Below, in pieces: positions 1 through 43,135 of a DNA stretch of 47,137 bases (position 1 is its first letter; every line of letters begins with the position of its first letter). The notes beneath the pieces are model-generated. The model worked only from the letters and a program-made list of their open reading frames with translations, was not told the origin of the DNA and did not search any database. The position numbers and the translations under genes are program-made. Source of the stretch: Chiloscyllium plagiosum (Eukaryota); contig NC_057719.1 in assembly GCF_004010195.1 (NCBI RefSeq), positions 34,693,692 through 34,740,828 on the forward strand, in the 5' to 3' direction.

Positions 1-1480
1 TCTCCTACATGATCCCCCAGTGACGCTTCATCCACTTTCCCACCTCATTTTCAAGAACCAGGCCCAACATATATCCTTTTGTTGTTAGACTCAATATATT
101 CTGATGTCCGAAACTCTCCAGATTGCTTTTTAAGCTCCTCATTACCACCTTACACTGCCAATATACCAGTTTATATTTGGGTAATTGAAGACCCACATTA
201 TATCTATGTTGTAACTTCTATAATTTCTCTAATTTCCCAGAAGATTTGGTCCTCCACTAGGTGGTGGTCTATGCTAGGTATAGACAAATGTAATTATACC
301 CCTTTTTGTTCTTTAGCTGTAACCAAATTCATTCAATGTTGAACTCTCTGAAACAACCTTTCTCTACCGAACTTCAAAGCCATTCTTAACCAATTTTCTT
401 CCTTTTCTGAAAACCTTGTACCCAGGAATATTTACCAACTAGTCTTGCCCTTCCATGAACCTGTTCATTGCTATTGCCACAAATCATATTTCCACATAAC
501 AGTCTAAGCCTACATCTCTCCAATCTTATTTACTATACAGTGCATTAACATACATACAGAGTAACCCTGATTTAGACTTCACGTCTTGCTTCCTTATTCT
601 AACATTTTCTTGCTAGTGCCATCTGTATCTCAAAATGTTTTATGAACCCTAGTTTTATTCTCCACTAGCTTCTCTTGGTTAGTTTGAAGTCCTCCCAATA
701 GCACGAGCAAAACACCCTGGAAGGACCTCAATCCCAAATCTGTTCAGGTGCAACCAATCCAGCTTGTACAGGTGCCATCTTTCCCAAAGCTAATCCCAGT
801 ATCCCAGAAATCTAACTCCCTCCCTCCTCCACTACCTTTCAGGCCACACGTTAATTTACCTTATCTTCCTACTTACGTACTCATTTGTGCGTGGTGATTA
901 CCACATTACCAGAGAAGACCACCATTGAGGTTAGGCTGGCTAATTTTCTGCCTCGCTCTCTAAATTCTAATTGCAGGACAATATGCCCCATCCTATGCAA
1001 GTCCTTGGTACCAAGGTCGACCATGATCTCTGGCTGTTCACCCTTCTCCAGAAGAATATCCTGCAGCTGCTCTATGACATCAATAACGCTGGCCCCACAG
1101 ACACAAGATATGATTCTGGAGTCACATGTACAGCTACAGAAATGCCTATCTGATTTCTTAACTGATCACTACCACTCAAAGTTTCTTCATCACCCTCTGT
1201 TGTACAGATGAGCCCCTCACAGAGCCAAAGTATGACTCTAACTGCACACACTTTGGGAACCAGTGCTCTCATCAGCTTCCAAAATGAAAAACCAATTGTG
1301 AGCAGGATGCTTTGGTACACCTATAGTACCTGTTTGTTTCTCTTGGACTGCCTAGTGGTCCTCCATTGCATTCCTTCTCAGACCCTTAAGCTGTGAAGTG
1401 GCCACCTCTTTAGATGTATGATCCACATAACTTTCAGTCTTGCAGATGTGCCACAGTAACTTCAGCCACTGCTCAGTTTC
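1..1480 (-). mobile_element. Old degenerate CR1 LINE, 3' part (ORF1 esterase region and start of ORF2 endonuclease), interrupted at 1480/1481
   Basis: Minus strand gives LGLVLENEVG (like CR1 APE LDLVLGNE), LYKLDWLHLNRFG (SGNH esterase DGLHLN motif) and ORF1 end ...GRTSN* at 679-689; many stops and frameshifts. Confidence 0.8.
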
Positions 1481-1846
1481 ACAGAGCAGTGAGGAGAGAA
1501 GGTGAGGTGAAGCAAGGGCTGTTGGGAATGGTACGTTTTCCCACTTAAAAAAGGACTTATCTTGGGAGTGGGGCCTCCATTTTGACAGAGCAGCGAGGAG
1601 AGGTGAGGTGAAGCGAGGATTGCCGGAAAGGTAAGGGCTTAATTTATATTTGGGCAGTGGCTAAACCCGAGATACTACACTTGTAGTATCTCCCTCCCGC
1701 TGCCCCACCCCCAAACCCCCCCACCTCCTCTAACCAGAAGAAAAAGACTCTGTAAGGTAAGGCTTTATTTCATTCTTTATCTTTCTTTTTCATATATTTA
1801 AGTGCATTATTTGGTTTTAGTTAGTTCATATAAAGCTAAGCTTACA

Positions 1847-2811
1847 ATGGCAGGGGACCTCAGACTCATGGCATGTGCCTCTTGCTTGATGTGGGAGCTC
1901 AGGGATGTGGCTGACGTTCCTGACTCTTACACTTGCAAGAAGTGTGTCCAGCTGCAGCTGTTGTTTGAGCGCATGATGGCTCTGGAGCTGCGGATGGACT
2001 CACAGTGGAGCATCTGTGATGCTGAGGAGGTCGTGGATAGCACGTTTCGTGAACTGGTCACACCGCAGGTTAGAATTGCTGAGGGAGACAGTGAATGGGT
2101 GACCAAACGACAGAAAAAGAGTCGGAAGGCAGTACAGGTGTCCCCTGCGGTCATCTCCCTCCAAAACAGGTATACCGTTTTGGATACTGTTGGGGGAGAT
2201 GGCACATTGGGGGAGATGGCACATCAGGGGAGGGCAGCAGTTGTCAAGATCATGGCACTGTGGTGGACACTGCTGTTCAGAAGGGCGGGACAAAGACTCA
2301 TAGGGCCATTGTCATTGGAGATTCTATTGTAAGGGGAGTAGATAGGTAGTTCTGTGGCCGAACAACAGACTCCCGGATGATATGTTGCCTCCCAGGTCCT
2401 CGGGTCAGGGATGTCACCGATCGGCTGCAGAGCTTTCTGAAAGGGGAGGGTGAATAGCCAGTTATCTTGGTGCATATAGCCACCAACGATAAAAATAGAA
2501 AATGAGATGAGGTCCTGAAAGAAGAATTCAGGGAGCTAGGAGAGAAGTTAAAGGGGAGGACCTCAAAGGCAGTGATCTGGGGATTACTACCAGTGCCACG
2601 TGCTAGCCAGCATTGAAATGAAAAAATAGGCAGGATGAACACATGGCTTGAGGGTTGTTGTAGGAGGGAGAAGTTCAGATTTGTTGGACATTGGGACCAG
2701 TTCTGGGGAAGGTGGGACTATTACAAAATGGACAGTCTACATCTGAACCAGACTGGAACCAATGTCCTTGGGGGAGGTTTTGCTACTGCTGTTGGAGAGA
2801 TTTTAAACTAA
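1847..2811 (+). pseudogene. CR1 ORF1: CxxC..CxxC zinc finger/coiled coil plus SGNH esterase; frameshifted
   Basis: MAGDLRLMACASCLMWE...YTCKKCVQLQLL; IVIGDSIVRGVDR; DSLHLNQTG; stop TAA at 2809-2811; 17-bp tandem duplication near 2192-2224 and internal stops. Confidence 0.88.
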
Positions 2812-5674
2812 TATGGCAGGAGGCTGGGAACCAGAAGAGAAGACAAGTAGGCAGTGAGGTGGAGACTGGAGACTGTAAGAATCATGAAGATAACATTAAT
2901 AAAGGGAAGAGTAGGCAGAGAGCAGATGAGCGCAAAAGAACTGTTGGCCTGAAATGCATCTACTTTAATGCAAGGAGTATAGTGTGTAAGGCTGATGAAC
3001 TTAGGATTTGGATTGGTGCCTGCAAGTATGAGGTTTTGGCAATCACAGAGACTTGGTTGAAGGAATGGCATGATGATTGGCAACTAAATGTTCCAGGATA
3101 TAGGCAGTTCAGACAGGACAGGGAGGGAAGTAAAAGGTGGGGGGAGGAGTTGCATTGCTGGTCAGGGATGATATCACGGCTGTTTTAAAGGAGGACACTA
3201 TGGAGGTCTTGGGTAGTGAGGCATTATGGGTGGAGCTGAGAAATAAGAAGGGTGCAGTTACATTGTTGGGGCTGTATTACAGGCCTCCCAACAGTGAGCA
3301 TGAGGTAGAAGAACAAATAGGTAAACAAATAGGGAAAAATGTAGAGGCAATAGTATCGTGCTGATGGGAGATTTTAATTTTCCCAACATTGACTGGGATA
3401 CACTTAGCGTCAGAGGTCTGGATGGGGTAGAATTTGTAAGAAGCGTCCAGGAGAGCTTTCTAGAGCAGTATGTCAATTTTCCAACAAGGGAAGGGGCCAT
3501 ATTGGATCTGGTACTGGGGAACGAGACAGGACATGTAGAAGTTGCAGTGGGAAATTTCTTTGGGAACATTAACCACAATTCTGTAAGTTTTAGAATACTC
3601 ATAGATAAAGATGAGAGTGGTCCTAAGGGAAGAGTACTAAACTGGGCCAAGGCCAATTCTATCAAAATTAGGCAAAAGTTCGGAAATGTGGATTGGACAC
3701 AGCTATTTGAAAGGAAGTCCACATTTGATATGTGGGAGGCTTTCAAAGATAGGTTAAATATAGTGCAGGATAGACATGTCCCGTTGAAGGCAAAGGATAG
3801 GAAGGGCAAGATTCGTGAACTGTGGCTGACAGGAGAAATTGTACAACTAGCCAAGAGGAAAAGGGAAACACACATAAGGTCCATGCAGCTAAGAACAGAA
3901 CGGGCCTTGGAGGAATATTGGAAGAGTAGGACAAGTCTTAAACGAGGAATCAAGCGGGCTAAAAGGGGGCTAAAATGAGATAGCTTTATCGAGCAAAATT
4001 AAGGAGAATCCCAAAGCATTTTATTCTTATGTAAGAAGCAAGCATGTAACTAGAGAAAGGATTGGTCCTCTAAAGGATAATGAAGGAAGGCTGTGTGTGC
4101 AACCTGAGAGATTCTGAATTACTTTGCATCAGTGTTCACTACGCAGAGGAACATGATGAATCTTGAGATTAGAGATAGAAGTTTGATTAGTCTGGATCAC
4201 GTTGACATATGTAAGGGAGATGTGTTGAGTAGGCTAGAGGTTATTAAGGTGGACAAATCCCCAGGACCGGATGGATCTATCCTAGGTTGCTGAGGGAGGT
4301 GAGAGAGGAAATGGCTGGAGCCCTGACAGATATCTTTGTGGCATCCTTAAATACAGGTGAGGTGCCGGAGGACTGGAAGGTTGCTCATGTTGTCCCCCTG
4401 TACAAGGAGGGTAGTAGGGATATTCCGGGTAACTACAGGCCAGTGAGCCTGACGAGAAAGTTGCTGGAGACTGTACTAAGGGATAGGATCTATTTATATT
4501 GAGAAAAGAATGGGCTTATCAGTGATAGGCAACATGGTTTTGTGCCGGGGAGATCGTGCCTTACCAACTTAATAGAGTTCTTTGAGGAAGTGACCAAGTT
4601 GACAGATGAAGGAAGGGCTGTTGATGTCATATACATGGACTTTAGTAAGGCATTTGATAAGGTTCCCCATGGTGCACTAATGGAGAAAGTGAAGTCACAT
4701 GGTGTGCAGGGTGTTCTAGCTGGGTGGATAAAGAACTGGTTGAGCAACAGGAGACAGAGAGTAGTAATTGAAGGGAGTTCCTCGAAATGGAGAAAGGTGC
4801 TCCACAGGGGTCAGTGTTGAGGCCACTGTTTTTTGTGATATACATTAATGATCTGGAAGAGGGCACTGTTGGTATGATCAACAAGTTTGCAGATGACACA
4901 AAGATTTGTGGAGTAGCAGAAAGCATAAGGGACTGTCAGGCAGACATAGATAGACTGGAGAGTTGGGTGGAAAAGTGGCAGCTGGATTTCAATCCTGACA
5001 AATGTGAGGTGATGCATTTAGGCAAGACTAATTCTAGAGTGAATTATACAATGAACAGAAGAGCTTTGGGAAAAGTTGATGAGCACAGAGATCTGTGAGT
5101 TCAGGTCTATTGTACCCTGAAGGTTGCTGCACAGGTGGATAGAGTGGTCAAGAAGGCATATAGCATGCTTGCCTTCATCAGATGGGGTATTGAGTATAAG
5201 AGCTAGCAAGTCATGTTAAAATTGTACAAGACATTGGTTCAGCCACATTTAGAATACTGTGTACAGTTATGGTCGCCACATTACCAAAAGGATGTGGACG
5301 CTTTGGAGAGGGTGCAGAGAAGGTTTACGGGGATATTGCCTGGTATGAAAGGTGCTAGCTATGAAGAAACGTTGAGTAGGTTAGGTTTGTTTTCATTAGA
5401 AAAAAGGAGATTGAGGGGGGACTTGATTGAGGTTTACAAAATCATGAAGGGTATAGACAGGGTAGATAGAGATAAGCTTTTTTCCAGGGTGAAGGATTCA
5501 ATAACGTGTGGTCACGTGTTCAAGGTGAGAGGTGGAACATTTAAGGGGGATACACACGGCAATTACTTCACACAGAGGGTGGTGGGCGTCTGGAACGCAT
5601 TGCCAGCAGAGGTGGTAGAGGTAGGCACGGTAGATACATTTATGATGCGTCTGGACAGATGCATGAGTAGGTAG
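2802..5674 (+). pseudogene. CR1 ORF2: APE endonuclease plus reverse transcriptase; disrupted
   Basis: LKCIYFNARS, ITETW, YYRPP, MGDFNFP, NYRPVSLT, YMDFSKAFDKVPH, PQGSVL, KFADDTK and RRLRGDLIEVYK found in successive ORF fragments. Confidence 0.95.
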
Positions 5675-5791
5675 GGAGCAGAGGGATACAGATGCTTAGG
5701 AATTGGGCAACAGGTTTAGACAGCAGATTTGGATCAGCGCAGGCTTGGAGGGCCGAAGGGCCTGTTGCTGGGCTGTAAATCTTCTTTGTTC

Positions 5792-6000
5792 TAAAACCCA
5801 AAGCTTAAGGTTCTGCAGCAGAAAGTATTTCCTGCAACTGTGGTCATCTCAGGACCCCAATGGAGTCCATAACTTCCCATGTATAAGGGGCCATGCATTC
5901 AACTCAACTGACCTGTGTCATCTTGACTTTTCATACTTCCCTTACAGTAATAACCCTACATCCCTTACTCCACTTTATCTTACTTATATTACTATACTAT
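5792..6000 (-). mobile_element. 5' continuation (ORF1 N-terminus) of the old CR1 at 1-1480
   Basis: Joining 1480 to 5792 restores the in-frame minus-strand ...QNLKLWVLETEQWLKLLWHI..., preceded by an HSCRK zinc-finger remnant; outer boundary approximate. Confidence 0.7.
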
Positions 6001-28879: not shown

Positions 28880-30660
28880 ACCATTGTGGTCCATAATGGG
28901 CCCTACACTTTCCTTTGTTATCCTTAATGTATCTGTGAAAGAAAATAAGGATTTTCCTTTATTTTACCTGGCATTACTTCATGCCTCCTGATTTCATTTT
29001 AAGTTTCCCTCACACATTCTCCACTCCTCTGGGGCTTCTCTGTTTTGAGCCCTCAGTTTCTGCAATAAGCCTCCTTTTTTTCTTCATCCAATCCTAAATA
29101 TCACTGGATAGTCAGTGCTCACAGAATTTGTTGGTCCCACCCTTTGTCTTTATTAGAACATGTTGGCCCTATGCTCTCCCTATTTCCTTCTTGAATGCAT
29201 CCCACCACTCTAACACAGATTTACCGAAAAGGTATCTGCTCCCAGTCCACTCCAGCCAAATCTGCCCTGATCTTAGTAAAATTGGCCCTCACCCAGTTTA
29301 GAACTTTGATTTCAGGCTTACCCTTATCTGTTTACATAACAATCTTGAATCTAACAGGATTATAATCAAGGTCTGTAAAATGCATCCCCATTGATATATC
29401 TTCACCTAAAATTAAGTCCAGGACTGTTCCATCTCTTGGGAGACCCTCTACATGCTTGTTTAAAAAATCTCTTCTGGATGCATTTTAAGAATTTCACTCC
29501 CTGTAAACATTTCATATTATGACGACCCTAGTTAATGTTGGGAAATTTGAAATCGTTACTATCACTATCCTACTCTTTTTATACTTCTCTGCAATTTGGC
29601 AATTTGGACTGTTAGGGGCCTGATAGTACAGTCCAGTCATGTGATTACTCCCCTTTAGTTTTTAACTTCTACCCATATGGCTCCTGTTGAGGAACATTTT
29701 AAGATATCATCCCTTCTTACTGCTATAATTGATCCCTGATGAATATTGTAACACCTCATCCTTGTCTACCTCCTTCCCTGTCTCACCTGACGATCCTATA
29801 TCTTGGAATGTTGAACTGCCAGTCCTGCCCCTCTCTCTCAACCATATCTCAGTAACAGCAATTACATCGTACCCCCAATGTTTTAGTTTGTAACCACATT
29901 TTTCATCGATGCCCTTGCTTTAAAATAAATACCATCCAATCTCCCTTGTGCCTTAACTGGTCTACAACTGTTATGCCTCCCTAACTGATTTGCTGTCTCT
30001 TCTCATGTTGGTTGTTCACTGCCACTTGCCCCTGTCCCCTGCCAAATTAGTTTAAATTGCCCCTACAGCACAACCAAATCTCCCCACAAAGATACTGGTC
30101 CCAATCTGGTTCAGGTGCAAACCATCTGCCTTGTATTGGTCCTGCCAACCCATAAGAATGGTCTCAATATCCCAGACATCTAAACTACCCCCTCCTCCCA
30201 CACCATCTCTCCAACCATGTATTCATCTGGATTGACCTCTTATTTATATACTCACTAACGTGGGCACTGGGAAGTAATCCAGAGATTACTGTCTTTTTGG
30301 GTCCAGTTCCTTAAACTAGTTTCTCGCTTCCTAAACTCAGCTTTCAGGATCTCATCCATTTTTCTGCCTATATCATTGGCACTAATACCTACCAGGATCT
30401 ATGTCTCTTTACCCTCCCAATTCAGAATGCTCTGCACCATTCAGTAGCTTCCCTGACCTGGCACTGGGGAGGGAACATACCATTCCGGAGTTTCTCCTGC
30501 GACTGCCTCTCTGCTCCCTTTATGAATGAGTCCCCTCCCATGATAGCCCTGTCACTCTTATTCCTTCTTTCTTTTGGAGCAAACTCACCCATGGTGCCAC
30601 AAAGCTGTTTGTTACTGCTTTCCTCTGCACAGATATCTTCCCCAACAGTATCCAAAACAG
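28880..30660 (-). mobile_element. Old CR1 fragment (ORF1 esterase and ORF2 endonuclease)
   Basis: DTVGED...RAIMGGDSFIKG, DGLHLNQIG, tttaaactaa ORF1 end, degenerate APE. Confidence 0.8.
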
Positions 30661-36662: not shown

Positions 36663-37160
36663 TGTGAGAAATGGGGAAGGGTGTTGTTTTCGCAAATGTA
36701 GTAAAAAGGGTAGTGATAATAAGCTTAAGCATAGCACTGACAAACAAGTATAGAGGGCAGCTGCAGGCAAAGATCAGATTAGCAAACTTCTGGGAAAAAC
36801 AAGTTTGTGCAGGCAGAAAAGCAGAACAATAGAAAACACTAGCACAGCAAGTGTTAATATAGTTACAAAACGGTTGCAGCTAACGGCCCAAGGAGATAGA
36901 AGTAGAATCTAATCAAGATAAGGAGAAGTCACGTAGGGGCAGTCAGGTCACAAGTTAGGCAGAGAACTAGGGTGATTGGGTAATGTAGGAGTCGGGAGAG
37001 GTGACCTCTCGCAGCTCAAAGGTATAACTGTATACTTGTTTCAATGCTCATTGCTCATTTGCTTTAGCATTTGACGCCCTTTCTTGCAAGATTGGAAAAT
37101 AAATTGTCTTACTTCCAGTTTTGGTGGTCTTGGCTAACTTTGTTGAGTTTGTTTCTAACA
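36663..37160 (+). repeat. 5' LTR (498 bp)
   Basis: TGTGAGAAA...TTTCTAACA imperfect inverted ends; TATAA 37023-37027; AATAAA 37098-37103. Confidence 0.96.
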
Positions 37161-37164
37161 GACT

Positions 37165-37182
37165 TGGGGGCTCGTCCAGGAT
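37165..37182 (+). other. Primer binding site, tRNA-Pro
   Basis: TGGGGGCTCGTCCAGGAT, 17/18 match to the MLV PBS-Pro TGGGGGCTCGTCCGGGAT. Confidence 0.92.
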
Positions 37183-37491
37183 CCCAAGCTCTGGTCACTC
37201 GGCATTCTTGAAGAAACGGAAAAGGTGCACCTCGCTGATTTTGGCGATCTCTAGTTTCCCCTTGTTGCTGTGGCGCCTTTGGGCGAGCGTGATCTGGACG
37301 GAAAGACCCTGGAAACAAGATGGGAAGACACAGCGGGTTCGGTCGGGTAACTCTTGTGCACAAGACCCAGGAAAGGAAAGGTCTCTCGAGATATATCCGG
37401 GCGACCGGGAATTTGCAAAAGTAGCTGTTGCGGGAATTGCCGCGCGGGTAACGGCCGAATTGACACGACCAGGTAACTCTGTACACCAACC

Positions 37492-37500
37492 AAGGTAAGA
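37492..37500 (+). promoter_or_regulatory. Probable major splice donor of the ERV leader
   Basis: AAG|GTAAGA between PBS and gag. Confidence 0.55.
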
Positions 37501-37748
37501 AAAGGACCTTTAAGTGTTGCCTTGGTGATCGGGGACGTACGAGAAGTACAGGGAATTGGCGATGTCTAAAAATAACATATAATTGGTCAGATTGATCGGA
37601 CGGGAAAGGGTGTCAACCTGACTCTAGCAGCCAGCCTTAGACCGGTTGTTAAGAAGGGAAATCCCCCACGTGCAGGTCAGGAACCTGAAGTGGATGTGGA
37701 AGAAGGTGGCACCGGACCTCGAAAAGATCAATTAAATTCAAGAAAAAA

Positions 37749-39294
37749 ATGGGAGGCAAGGGAAGTTGTCTCTATAAAGATCGATCTACAGATAATGTTA
37801 AACTTGAAGAAATTCCATCCGACAGTCCCTTGGGGAAAATGTTGGGAAATTGGGAACACAACTCCCAGACATGGGGGAAAGATAAAGTTATAATCATAAG
37901 GTATTATTGTTTTGTCTGGACACAAGAAAGTATTAAGAAATCTGAAATCTTTTGGCCCAAATATGGGTCCGATGAAGATTGGCTGTGCCAAGATTTAAAT
38001 ATATATGTTAATAGCAAAGAGAAACAAAGCCGACAAGAGGCTGATTATGCAGTCTGTTGGATAGGGAGCCAAAATATGTTTGTCTTAAAAAAGAAAGAAA
38101 GGGAGGAAAAGGATGAAAAATACCCAAAACTCCCCATTGGGACCCTTTGTCAAATTTACCTCCCCCTTATTACAACAGAAATGACAGTCCACGGTCCATC
38201 ATCTCCCAGCGACAGTCGACCGTCGTCCCAGCCCTCTGCACCGCCAGCAGAGGAACCCCCGGAAGAGGAACCTGAAAAAAGCCCAGAAGAGGACTCCACT
38301 GTGAGTCAGGTTAAGACTAGATCAGCAGGAAGGAGAGAAGAAAGGGAATAAGGCGGGGCAACACAGGTATATCCTCTCAGAGAGGTCCCCATTGGAAACA
38401 GCGAAATTGGATATGTTAATGTGCCGCTGACCAGTGGGGAGGTCAGAGCCTTTAAAAAGGAAATGAAAAATCTAATTGAGGATCGCGTGGGATTGGGGGA
38501 GCAGTTCGACCAGTTTTTGGGGCCAAATTGGTATACCTGGGGGGAAATGATGGCAATATTGGGGACATTATTCTCAGGAGAAGAAAGGGGTATGATCAGA
38601 AGGGCCGGTCTGAGGGAGTGGGAAAAGAGATACCCTCCGGGTAAAGAAGTAACTCCGGCTGAACAAAAATTCCCTAATACAGATCCCCGATGGGAGGGCA
38701 TGAATGCACATGATAGGGGAAGCATGAGAGACTTTCGGGAAATGGTGATCTTGGGAATTAAGGAAGCAGCACCAAGATCACAAAACTTTGTTAAGGCTTT
38801 TGAAGTAAGGCAGGAGAAAGACGAAATCCCTTCAGCGTTTCTTCAAAGGCTCAAAGAAGCCACAAGGAAATATTCGGGAATCAATCCTGATGACCTGGTG
38901 GCGCAAGGACTTTTGAAGGTCAGTTTCTGACAAAGTCATGGCCGGACATACAAAAGAAATTGCAGAAAATAGATGGATGGAGTGAAAAACAAATGGAAGA
39001 GTTGTTACATGAGGCACAGAAAGTGTATGTGAAGAGAGAGGACGAGAAGCAGAAGCAGAAAGCTAAAATGATGGTGGCGGCAGTAATGAAATAACAAAGA
39101 GGAGATTAGGATCGGGAGATAATAAAAAAGTTAAGGATATAGGAGGACACGAAAGACAAAGGTCGGATGTCCAGGGAAGGAGGCAACAGGCGGGATGTTA
39201 CCATTGTGGAAAAGTGGGGCATTTTAAACGAGAATGCCCTGGACTAACGCAGGAAAAGGGAAGCTGTTTCCCTATTGACATTTGATGAAGACTG
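37749..39294 (+). pseudogene. gag: ERV Gag (MA, PPPY and PSAP late domains, CA, one CCHC zinc knuckle)
   Basis: MGGKGS myristoylation signal; NLPPPYY and QPSAPP; MHR QEKDEIPSAFLQRL; CYHCGKVGHFKREC; several frameshifts and stops. Confidence 0.93.
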
Positions 39295-42200
39295 GGGAGT
39301 CAGGGGCTCCTTCCTTCTGAAACCCACCGGGAACCCTTGATAAATCTAAAGGTGTGACCTGAAGGGGAGGAGGCAGTGTTTTTGGTGGACACGGGAGCGG
39401 CACGGTCATCCCTAAGTTTTAGACCTACCGGTGTTAAATTGACAAATAAGAATCTCAGGGTTTCTGGAGTAAAAGGTGGAGAATTCCTAGTGCCTATTTT
39501 TGAGCCAATGCTAATTAGAGTAAATAACGAGGAAGTGACAGGACAATTATTGTATATTCCCGACATTGGAAGTAATCTATTAGGTAGGGATTTGATTATC
39601 TTGTTAGGCTTAAAAATTGGGTGGAAAACAGTGCAGTGACCGTAAAGATGGCCATGTTAACACCATGTTAACAAATCAGCCCTGATGTATGGGCAAGACC
39701 GGGTAATACAGGGCATCTAACTATTACTCCGATGGTAATTACGTTAATTCAGGAGAATAAGACAGTTTGGGTTAGACAATACCCCATATCACTGGAAGGT
39801 CATAAAGATCTCCAACCAGTTATAGATTCTTCGTTAAAAACCGGATTGTTAGAACCCTGTATGTCACCCTTTAATACCCCAATACTGCCTGTCCGCAAAC
39901 CAGACGGAACCTATCGATTAGTGCAGGATCTCACAGCATTGAACCGATTGGTTCGAACACGACACCCGGTAGTCCCCAATCCGTACACTTTGCTAGGCAA
40001 GATACCGTGTGACCACCGCTGGTTTAGTGTAATAGATTTAAAGGATGCATTCTGGGCCTGCCCTCTGGCTCCAGAAAGCTGTGACATGTTTGCCTTTGAG
40101 TGGGAAAACCCATACACTGGTAGAAAGCAACAATTCCGATGGACGGTACTTCCCCAGGGATTCACAGAATCACCTAATCTATTCAGGCAAGTACTGGAAC
40201 AGGTCCTGGAACAACTTGAGATGCCTAAAGGGACTTCACTGTTACAATATGTGGACGACCTACTTGTGTCAGGACGAAAGAGAGATGATGTGAGCTTGGC
40301 CACCAATAAGCTGTTAAATTTCCTAGGGCAACAAGGTTTAAGAGTATCTAGGAATAAATTGCAATATGTAGAGAAAGAGATGAAATATTTAGGGCACCTT
40401 GTTAGTGAGGGTACTAGGCGAATTAACCCCGAGAGAATTAAAGGAATAGTAGAACTACTCCTCCCGACCACCAAACGAGAATTACGGAAGTTCTTAGGGC
40501 TAGTGGGCTATTGTAGATTATGGATAGAAGCATACGCCCAGAAAACAAAGGGGTTATATTATAAATTGACAGAATCTGAACATGAAAGACTACACGGGAC
40601 AGAAGAGGAAAAGGAAGGGTTACATGAGTTAAAGCGTAGTTTATTACAAGTTCTGGTGCTGGCTCTTCCTTCCCTCAAGAAACCATTCCACCTTTTTGTG
40701 ACACTAAATGATGGAGCAGCCTTAGGAGTGTTAACCCAGAAGGGAGGGGGAAGGAGGCAGCCNNNNNNNNNNNNNNNNNNNNNNNNNNNNNNNNNNNNNN
40801 NNNNNNNNNNNNNNNNNGTCAGAACTGTGCTAAGCCAAAAGGCAGGGAGATGGTTGACAGACTCACGAATCTTAAAATACGAAGCTATCCTGATGGAGAG
40901 AGATGACCTCGTGTTAGCAACAGATACCTGTCTAAACTCAGCTACCTTCCTATGGAAGGGAGAACCTCTGGACAAATGAGAATTAGAACACAACTGCTTA
41001 GATATCATTGAGTATCAGACTAAGGTTAGACAGTTTCTAAAAGATATTCCCTTGCATGTTGGGGACAGACTGTTTATAGACGGATCATCAAGAGTGGTAC
41101 AAGGAAAAAGACACAATGGATATGCAGTAGTGGATGGTCACAAGAACCAAACAGTTGAGGCTGACCGGTTGCCTAACACATGGTCGGCCCAAACTTGTGA
41201 GTTGTATGCATTAAACCAAGCTTTAAAACAACTAGAAAATCAGGATGGGACAATTTACACTGACACTAAGTATGCCTATGGGGTGGTCCATACCTTCGGA
41301 AAAATATGGCAAGAACGTGGACTATTCAATAGCCGGGGAAAGGAATTAGTACACGAAGAGTTAATAGGACAAGTGTTGAAATGTTTGGAATTACCACGAG
41401 AAATAACAATAGTTCATGTACCAGGGCACCAAAGGGGAACATTCTAGAAGCAAGAGGAAATAGGCTAGCAGACGAAGCAGCCAAAGAGGCAGCTATGAAC
41501 CTTACAGTAACAAAAATACAGGTTCTCACACCCCTAGTGGAGTCTCCTTCCGTGAACCCCATGTACACGAAGGAAGAGGAAAAAGAATTCCAGGAGATAG
41601 GAGCCACTAAGACAAGGGAAGGAAGATGGATTCTCCCGGATGGGAGTGAAATGTTGAGTAAACCAGTCATGAGAAACATTCTAAATACCCTGCACCGAGG
41701 CAGTCACTGGGGCTCTCAAGCCATGTGTAGCATAGTGTTAAGGGAGTATGGATGTAAAGGGATATACACATTAGCCAAGCAGGTATGCTCAGGATGCCCG
41801 ATTTGCCAAAAGATTAATAAAAAGGTAACAATAGGAGGGCAAAAAGGTGAAAGGAATCCCGGGGTAAGACCTTTTCAGAGCATACAGGTCGACTGTACAG
41901 AATTACCCCCGGTAGGGAAACAAAAGTATTTATTAGTCATAGTAGACCACTTAACCAGGTGGGTAAAAGCTTTCCCAATGTCTTCAGCTACCTCAAAAGG
42001 AGTAGTGAAAACGCTCCTTGAACATATCATCCCACAATATGGAATAGTGGAAACTATAGATTCAGACCAAGGTACCCTTTTTACTTCTAAGAGCTTACAA
42101 GGGGTAATAGCAGGATTAGAAATTTTGTGGGAATTCCATACTCCTTGGCACCCACCCTCCTCTGGACGGGTGGAAAGAATGAATCAAACCTTTAAGAAGC

Positions 42201-42726
42201 AATTATCAAAGTTAGTCCTAGAGACCCGATTACCACGGACTAAATGCTTATCTATTGCACTATTACGCATTCGGATGGCCCCGAGGCATGATATCGGACT
42301 TTCTCCTTATGAAATGATGTTTGGGCTGCCATTCCTGGGAGGGAAGGGAAAGGTACCCACGGCCGAGTTTAATGACAAGTTTTTGAAAACTATATTGTGG
42401 CACTTGGCTCTTCATTATCTGTTCTTAGGAATAAAGGTCTTTTCGTACAGACAGCACCACTCGAGTTTGCAGTACATCGGATATGACCAGGTGATTGGAT
42501 CCTGATAAAGACCTGGAAGGATACCAAACTACACCCGAGCTGGGAGGGACCATTCTTAACTCTCCTGACTACCGAAACAGCCGTCCGAACTGCAGAAAAA
42601 GGGTGGAGTCATCACACTTGTGTTAAGGGCCCCGTGGATGCTCCTTCCCCTTCGGCAGAGTGGCAAGCTCATCCTACAGACAACCTTCTGAAAGTCAAGC
42701 TGAGTAGGAAGACTGGACTGAAATAA
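39295..42726 (+). pseudogene. pol: ERV Pro-Pol (PR, RT, RNase H, IN); contains assembly gap 40763-40817
   Basis: FLVDTGA..LLGRD; LPQGFTESP, YVDD; FIDGSS, IYTD, GNRLAD; HHCC, D-D-E (QVD, SDQG, VERMN), WEGPF. Confidence 0.96.
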
Positions 42727-43135
42727 TAATTGCTGCCATTGACTTTAAAATTTGCTGCTACTGATTGTAAGGGTTGCGTGGACTCACTTCTCCCAGACGA
42801 CTACAAAAGGGGGAAAGAAGGCAGGAAGGCGGACAGAGGTAAGAGATGAGTGGGTATTGGTAAAGTGTTGTAATGATATTCATACTGACGGTTCAAGGAG
42901 ACGGGAAAAATCATTTTACTTCCCGGACTGAAATAATAATTGCTGCCATTGACTTTAAAATTTGCTGCTACTGATTGTAAGGGTTGCGTGGACTCACTTC
43001 TCCCAGATGACTACAAAAGGGGGAAAGATAGGCAGGAAGGCGGACAGAGGTAAGAGATGAGTGGGTATTGGGAAAGTGTTGTAATGATATTCATACTGAC
43101 AGTTCAAGGAGACGGGAAAAATCATTTTACTTCCC
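42715..43135 (+). repeat. Tandem duplication of 210/211 bp at the pol-env boundary
   Basis: 42715-42924 and 42925-43135; 4 differences. Confidence 0.95.

Follow-up and report, generated by a model that had tools for sequence, protein, structure and literature searches.

A slippery heptamer conserved at the ORF1-ORF2 junction of CR1 retrotransposons as a candidate site of -1 ribosomal frameshifting

The heptamer U_UUA_AAC ranks among the shiftiest sequences used in -1 ribosomal frameshifting and is the site of infectious bronchitis virus (IBV) (PMC5009743). Here we analysed a copy of the long interspersed nuclear element (LINE) CR1 from the shark Chiloscyllium plagiosum, in which the same heptamer stands at the junction between open reading frame 1 (ORF1) and ORF2. 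The copy lies in a stretch of 47,137 nucleotides (assembly GCF_004010195.1, contig NC_057719.1, positions 34,693,692 to 34,740,828, forward strand), which we refer to as the window.

[quoted passage not shown] Among non-LTR (long terminal repeat) elements, SART1 couples termination to initiation at UAAUG (PMC3708506; PMC3894237), and a frameshift has been proposed for the gag gene of Drosophila HeT-A (PMC5009743). The translation of LINE ORF2 has been called an open question (PMC3708506, PMC3894237). Most vertebrate genomes are dominated by elements of the CR1 group (PMC13343379).

A full-text literature search, covering titles and the starts of abstracts, returned no paper on CR1 frameshifting; Haas 1997 and Kajikawa 1997 lie outside its coverage and could already note the site. 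The main text of PMC13343379 gave no match for frameshift, translation, overlap, start codon, reinitiation or fusion, the supplement of PMC11303007 gave no match, the term frameshift is absent from PMC8665684 and PMC3894237, and the term CR1 is absent from the searched part of PMC5009743.

The CR1 junction in the window

The focal element (1474..5792, + strand, 5' limit approximate) is a near full-length, inactivated CR1 copy of about 4.3 kb that belongs to a family termed F1 and is collinear with the copies L181-L188, which lie elsewhere in the 3.56-Gb genome and are 85-92% identical to it. A sequence-only reading of the window had placed the heptamer U_UUA_AAC (2802..2808, +) in the X XXY YYZ phase of ORF1 directly before the stop, and the sequence bears this out: ORF1 ends GAG ATT TTA AAC TAA, with the TAA at 2809..2811 (+). 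The -1 frame is open from 2664 to 3188 and reads FKLIWQEAGNQ...VGLKCIYFNARS, with no Met ahead of the endonuclease in this copy. The ORF2-frame codon that overlaps the stop (2811..2813, +) is ATA here, and F1 is the one family in which most copies have ATG. Further 3' lies a G-rich motif (2816..2828, +), a candidate stimulator, with G at +8, GGGG at +11..+14 and GG at +18/19 after the heptamer; the focal copy carries an A at 2821, which damages the run to GGAGG (2819-2823), and RNA reads have G at that position in 7 of 7 cases.

ORF1 (1847..2811, +) comprises a Cys-rich N-terminus and an SGNH/GDSL esterase and is 78-80% identical to that of the intact relative L181, in which Pfam matches Lipase_GDSL_2 (E 2e-10). 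ORF2 (2802..5674, +, -1 frame) has a 53-codon linker to the motif YFNARS of an apurinic/apyrimidinic endonuclease (APE), followed by a reverse transcriptase (RT); Pfam finds RVT_1 in two pieces and Exo_endo_phos below the cut-off in one piece, the latter domain being above the cut-off in L186. The copy is dead: its ORF1 has a frameshift near 2206-2215 and four in-frame stops, and its ORF2 is fragmented. Its esterase ORF1, its ORF2 with APE and RT and its 3' end (5740..5792, +), in which sequence inspection finds a short hairpin and pyrimidine-rich repeats and no poly(A), are the features of canonical vertebrate CR1. The closest protein relatives are from sharks and rays, and the junction resembles by eye that of the Scyliorhinus CR1-1a row. 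The 5' untranslated region (UTR) contains a duplicated unit of about 35 nt (1480-1625, +).

The further claim that two other copies in the window keep the site held for one of them as it stands. Copy B, of the older family F5 (junction 30036..30056, -), has an intact TTTAAAC (30056-30050), TAA at 30049-30047, no ATG and GGGG at +11..+14. In copy C, of the older family F6 (679..688, -), the heptamer is mutated to TTCAAAC before the TAA, and the F6 family majority reads TTTAAAC. Copy C (1-1560, -) stands head-to-head with the focal copy, which may have inserted into the 5' part of the copy C ORF1.

Conservation of the heptamer and entry into ORF2

When copies B and C and three divergent ORF1 proteins were used as queries, eight more families were recovered from the same genome. 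A metagenome scan yielded 33 loci, and the ORF1 end is reached in 14 of them, namely the vertebrate-like L204 and 13 loci that we take to be bird-like from their resemblance. Removal of duplicates left 193 of 220 candidate junctions, and 165 of these were assigned to nine families. We compared 20 lineages: the nine family majorities, L275, L204 and nine bird-like loci. Lineages were found through ORF1 similarity, and the DNA-query searches did span the junction. L129, L209 and L097 were left out of codon counts for indels (the heptamer is intact in all three, the G-run shifted in L097); also unused were L231 (upstream deletion, heptamer intact), L211 and L093 (heptamer damaged) and L208, which ends 8 nt past an intact heptamer. 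A random sample of the same genome gave four junctions in the first 60 stretches of 10 kb and none in 12 more, too few for statistics. Viral contigs contained neither relatives nor a motif match, GTDB contigs gave three loci, none with a junction, and plasmids gave no match. Three CR1 ORF1 sequences filed under bacteria or flatworm (L202, P0007 and P0053) are likely host contamination of those records.

TTTAAAC occurs at the projected ORF1 end in all nine family majorities, and the heptamer and its phase are kept without synonymous variation in 20 of 20 lineages. All of them have T as the last base of codon -2, the residues encoded there being V, G, A, T, D, H, S and C. The Leu of the heptamer is TTA in 20/20 lineages, compared with 2/109 of the other Leu codons in the preceding ORF1 stretch, and its Asn is AAC in 20/20, compared with 17/35. 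On a tree built from that stretch, parsimony assigns 0, 0 and 0 changes to the three third positions of the heptamer, whereas 26 control third positions have a mean of 5.96 changes, a minimum of 2 and no unchanged site. The stop follows directly in 18/20 lineages, the exceptions being F4 and the single copy L217. We regard the heptamer as a real, clade-wide signal.

Database proteins and published consensus sequences extend this pattern. Of 61 ORF1 proteins with a complete esterase end, 56 (from sharks, rays, frogs, coelacanth and mormyrid) finish in LN, and two of the five that do not are teleost-type sequences that end differently; a residue that has no NNT codon occurs at -3 in 1/56 proteins, compared with 40/56 at -4. 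In the PMC13343379 supplement, 44 matches to TTTAAACT comprised 19 at a CR1-type ORF1 end (18 with the adjacent stop), 3 at other places in CR1 rows and 22 in rows of other clades. This search selected on the motif, left misses uncounted, covered the first 400 characters per row and was read by eye. Consensus rows with heptamer and stop at the ORF1 end came from alligator, crocodile, Pogona, bullfrog, Latimeria, Amia, Aldrovandia, Callorhinchus and four elasmobranchs, and no synonymous heptamer variant at a CR1 ORF1 end was found among the matches listed (6/10 for one term and 6/14 for another).

Three side observations concern the same sequence. In the L183:2523 region an extra base in the T run of the heptamer fuses ORF1 and ORF2 in frame in the DNA, which probably arose by neutral change after insertion or from an error of the assembly. 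The supplement row AldAff_Crack-2, which bears the label Crack, has an esterase end of CR1 type and the heptamer at its start and is possibly a chimeric or mislabelled consensus. TTTAAACT with a G-rich word is also found in the 5' UTR of the Squalus rows SquAca_CR1-3 and CR1-18 of that supplement.

The sequence-only reading had described ORF2 as lacking an AUG, which is true of the focal copy and not of its family. Among the 30 closest copies in the alignment, 28 have ATG as the codon that overlaps the stop, as do 53 of 59 non-redundant F1 copies (ATA 5, GTG 1), and 6 of 7 RNA reads support ATG at 2813. The ATA of the focal copy is thus a minority variant, and the F1 layout is UAAUG, so that the argument drawn from the focal copy fails; its premise is corrected here. 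A conserved in-frame AUG, which that reading had named as evidence against a frameshift, is found in the F1 subfamily and not across the CR1 clade; the overlapping AUG is lacking in the other 8 of 9 family majorities. Across the clade, the frameshift hypothesis is supported by the synonymous invariance of the heptamer and by the AUG-less ORF2s of other families.

In F2a, F5, F7, L204 and L217 the first in-frame Met lies inside the endonuclease (codon 121 compared with the endonuclease motif at codon 46 in F2a, 59 with 52 in F5, 105 with 58 in F7, 43 with 33 in L204 and 96 with 37 in L217), and in other lineages it lies at scattered linker positions. F2a is young, about 4% from its majority, and has a -1-frame stop 5 codons upstream; of eight single copies listed, six have a Met-free linker up to the endonuclease motif and two have a linker frameshift. 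Linkers of 33 to 93 codons are in phase in 16/20 lineages, the others being truncated or broken copies. F4, L206, L210, L214, L220 and L223 have a stop in the -1 frame 1-2 codons upstream of the heptamer, so that the two frames overlap there across the heptamer only and an earlier entry into ORF2 is impossible.

The invariant in-phase heptamer, the minimal overlap and the inconstant AUG make -1 frameshifting the simplest account, and to judge from the sequences it is likely that slippage at U_UUA_AAC yields an ORF1-ORF2 fusion in CR1. A minority of ribosomes would slip back one base and make an esterase-linker-endonuclease-RT fusion, and most would end at the adjacent stop and release ORF1p alone. 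For F1 the predicted trans-frame peptide is ...GEVLN-LMWQ....

Some long open frames resembled natural ORF1-ORF2 fusions; in the two that were inspected (L241 and L273) they are N gaps. A search for longer proteins gave 3 matches. One of them, P0093, is, like P0030, a stingray gene model that reads esterase-FKL-xxQGAG-APE; these readings may stem from indels of single copies or from artefacts of the models, and we did not take them as evidence that a fusion is made.

The G-rich motif and alternative explanations

The G-rich stretch that had been noticed in two copies proved to be a position-fixed motif. GGGG stands at +11..+14 after the heptamer in 20/20 lineages with 0 changes, which is a new observation of this study; G is at +8 in 19/20 and GG at +18/19 in 18/20. 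Its flanks change 4-11 times, and third codon positions of ORF2 account for two of the four G's. In F4 the stop comes one codon later and the spacing from heptamer to G's is unchanged (a single event). In F3 (L286-L308) and F7 the motif has expanded to a fast-mutating poly-G tract. A G-quadruplex was rejected as a general stimulator, being predicted in only 7/20 lineages. [quoted passage not shown] A wider scheme, in which all canonical vertebrate CR1s make a Gag-Pol-like esterase-APE-RT fusion through one -1 site kept since the origin of jawed vertebrates and switched on by a protein bound to the G-run (possibly ORF1p), is more doubtful still.

Several observations limit the case for frameshifting or weigh against it. 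TTTAAACTRR is not rare in the window alone, with 2 seen where 0.87 are expected and a count of 2 attained by 22 of 100 shuffles, although each of the two lies at a CR1 ORF1 end. The window by itself is weak evidence, and what speaks against chance is the comparison across lineages. These lineages are interrelated, the bird-like ones are single copies, and the tree was built on 123 nt. Old single copies often have a damaged heptamer (intact in 6/24 for F6 and 12/21 for F5), as neutral decay predicts. UAAUG is present in F1, in L129 and in Scyliorhinus CR1-1a, and a Met stands at codon 4 in 5/10 bird-like loci. The absence of an AUG alone is no proof of a shift, since human L1 ORF2 is believed to be initiated in an AUG-independent manner (PMC5009743). 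No conserved 3' structure was found, with folding z-scores of -0.37 to +2.55 over the 20 lineages and no helix of at least 5 bp starting at +4..+13 in 11/20, pseudoknots being probed through a first-stem search only, so that the canonical, structure-type stimulator is missing. The poly-G of F3 and F7 is uninformative on spacing, and the exact G register occurs in just 8/19 rows of the PMC13343379 supplement, scored by eye; many rows there are low-confidence or carry deletions.

The main alternative is termination-reinitiation, which we regard as unlikely. Ribosomes would end at the ORF1 stop and restart at the overlapping or a nearby codon, which would be the AUG of UAAUG in F1 and a non-AUG codon in other families. 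ORF2p would then be made free, as it is in SART1 or L1, and the bases that are conserved would be a reinitiation signal. This agrees with the UAAUG of F1, which is the signal used by SART1 (PMC3708506), with the Met at ORF2 codon 3 or 4 in 7/23 rows and with the stop adjacent to the heptamer in most lineages. It leaves the perfect in-phase slippery heptamer unexplained, and the stop-overlapping codon is ATG, ATC, ACT, GTT, AAT, CTG, GTA, GCT, GAA, GAC, GGT or GAT, mostly not even near-cognate. In F4 the G motif follows the heptamer and not the stop. An upstream UGGGA, a calicivirus-type motif, is found in only 10/20 lineages and at variable positions. Reinitiation may serve as a second, parallel route in F1.

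A variant within the frameshifting account, in which the G motif would pair over a long range with the 3' terminal arm of the element in the manner of barley yellow dwarf virus (BYDV), is improbable as well. The arm came out best in a whole-element scan by a small margin (-5.71, with -4.72 to -5.53 in six shuffled-motif runs), the second-best site (-5.63) is coding sequence, and the pyrimidine-rich tail would suit any G-rich probe. Four of five bird-like motifs gave low shuffle fractions (0.02-0.06; 0.25-0.29 in the fifth) with the 3' tail of L234, a single bird-like tail that is not their own, and the F3 copy L335 matched its own tail at 0.02-0.04. In 7/7 shark families, by contrast, the pairing of motif and own tail was no better than that of shuffles (0.15-0.78), and the own tail was never the best partner (0/7). 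Gaps and divergence prevented full-length majority sequences for F2b, F5, F6 and F2c. The coding sites VVPLFKK and FDKVPH were rejected as pairing partners on account of their codon variation. The 5' arm of the 3'-UTR hairpin of amniote CR1, in the PMC4316615 supplement, resembles the shark junction motif (window 2814-2828), possibly by chance.

A non-translational role of the junction is very unlikely. The bases would then form an internal promoter of the TATA-like plus GC-box type, a splice acceptor with its branch point, or a site for RNA packaging, with ORF2 made from a separate or spliced RNA. The 5'-UTR occurrence of TTTAAACT in the two Squalus rows fits such a role, as does the G-run, which we liken to a GC/GT box, and several shark families read the acceptor-like CTAAY...CAG/G. 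An ORF2-only RNA of F2a, F5 or F7 would, however, miss the N-terminus of the endonuclease, AG/G is missing in F3, F4 and F7, and a pyrimidine tract is lacking; at low depth, RNA reads span the junction (about 8 deep, one sample) with no joint at CAG and no listed heptamer indel.

The last account, a constraint on the protein only, in which ORF1 needs its terminal Leu-Asn and the codons are incidental or due to dual coding of F-K-L, can draw on the near-invariant L and N and on a coincidental F-K-L with the same bases near the end of amniote CR1 ORF2 (PMC4316615 supplement), but it is already largely refuted and scarcely credible, because codons are fixed where free choice is expected (the TTA contrast above), the upstream -1 stops rule out dual coding from an upstream start, F4 ends LNF and the consensus-row matches listed above include no synonymous variant.

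Elsewhere in the window, an endogenous retrovirus-like region (37000-43000, +) carries Gag_p30, RVT_1 and integrase domains, with an N gap within pol.

Comparison with known systems

If -1 frameshifting is indeed used, the ORF2p of CR1 would be a fusion with the esterase, in contrast to the free ORF2p of L1. This would change the annotated start of ORF2, which copies count as intact and the design of active CR1 constructs. The G motif would be a candidate for a new type of frameshift stimulator and for protein-stimulated frameshifting outside RNA viruses.

The focal element shares its esterase ORF1, its APE-RT ORF2 and the lack of a poly(A) tail with canonical vertebrate CR1 (PMC13343379). Frameshifting has been proposed in HeT-A as it is here, but HeT-A has no RT ORF. 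The UAAUG of SART1, with ORF2 in the -1 frame, is the layout of F1; across the CR1 clade, by contrast, the AUG varies between families and the heptamer does not. Coronaviruses and retroviruses offer the same heptamer in the same phase, a structural ORF followed by a polymerase ORF in the -1 frame and an expected low ratio of the enzyme, whereas CR1 is a non-LTR retrotransposon in which slippage is a candidate mechanism and no stem-loop or pseudoknot is predicted 5-9 nt downstream. In this last respect CR1 is closer to PRRSV, which likewise has no discernible RNA structure and a short low-complexity motif from 11 nt 3' of the shift site; the CR1 motif is G-rich and not C-rich, so the resemblance is one of geometry only, with a binding protein that is putative in CR1.

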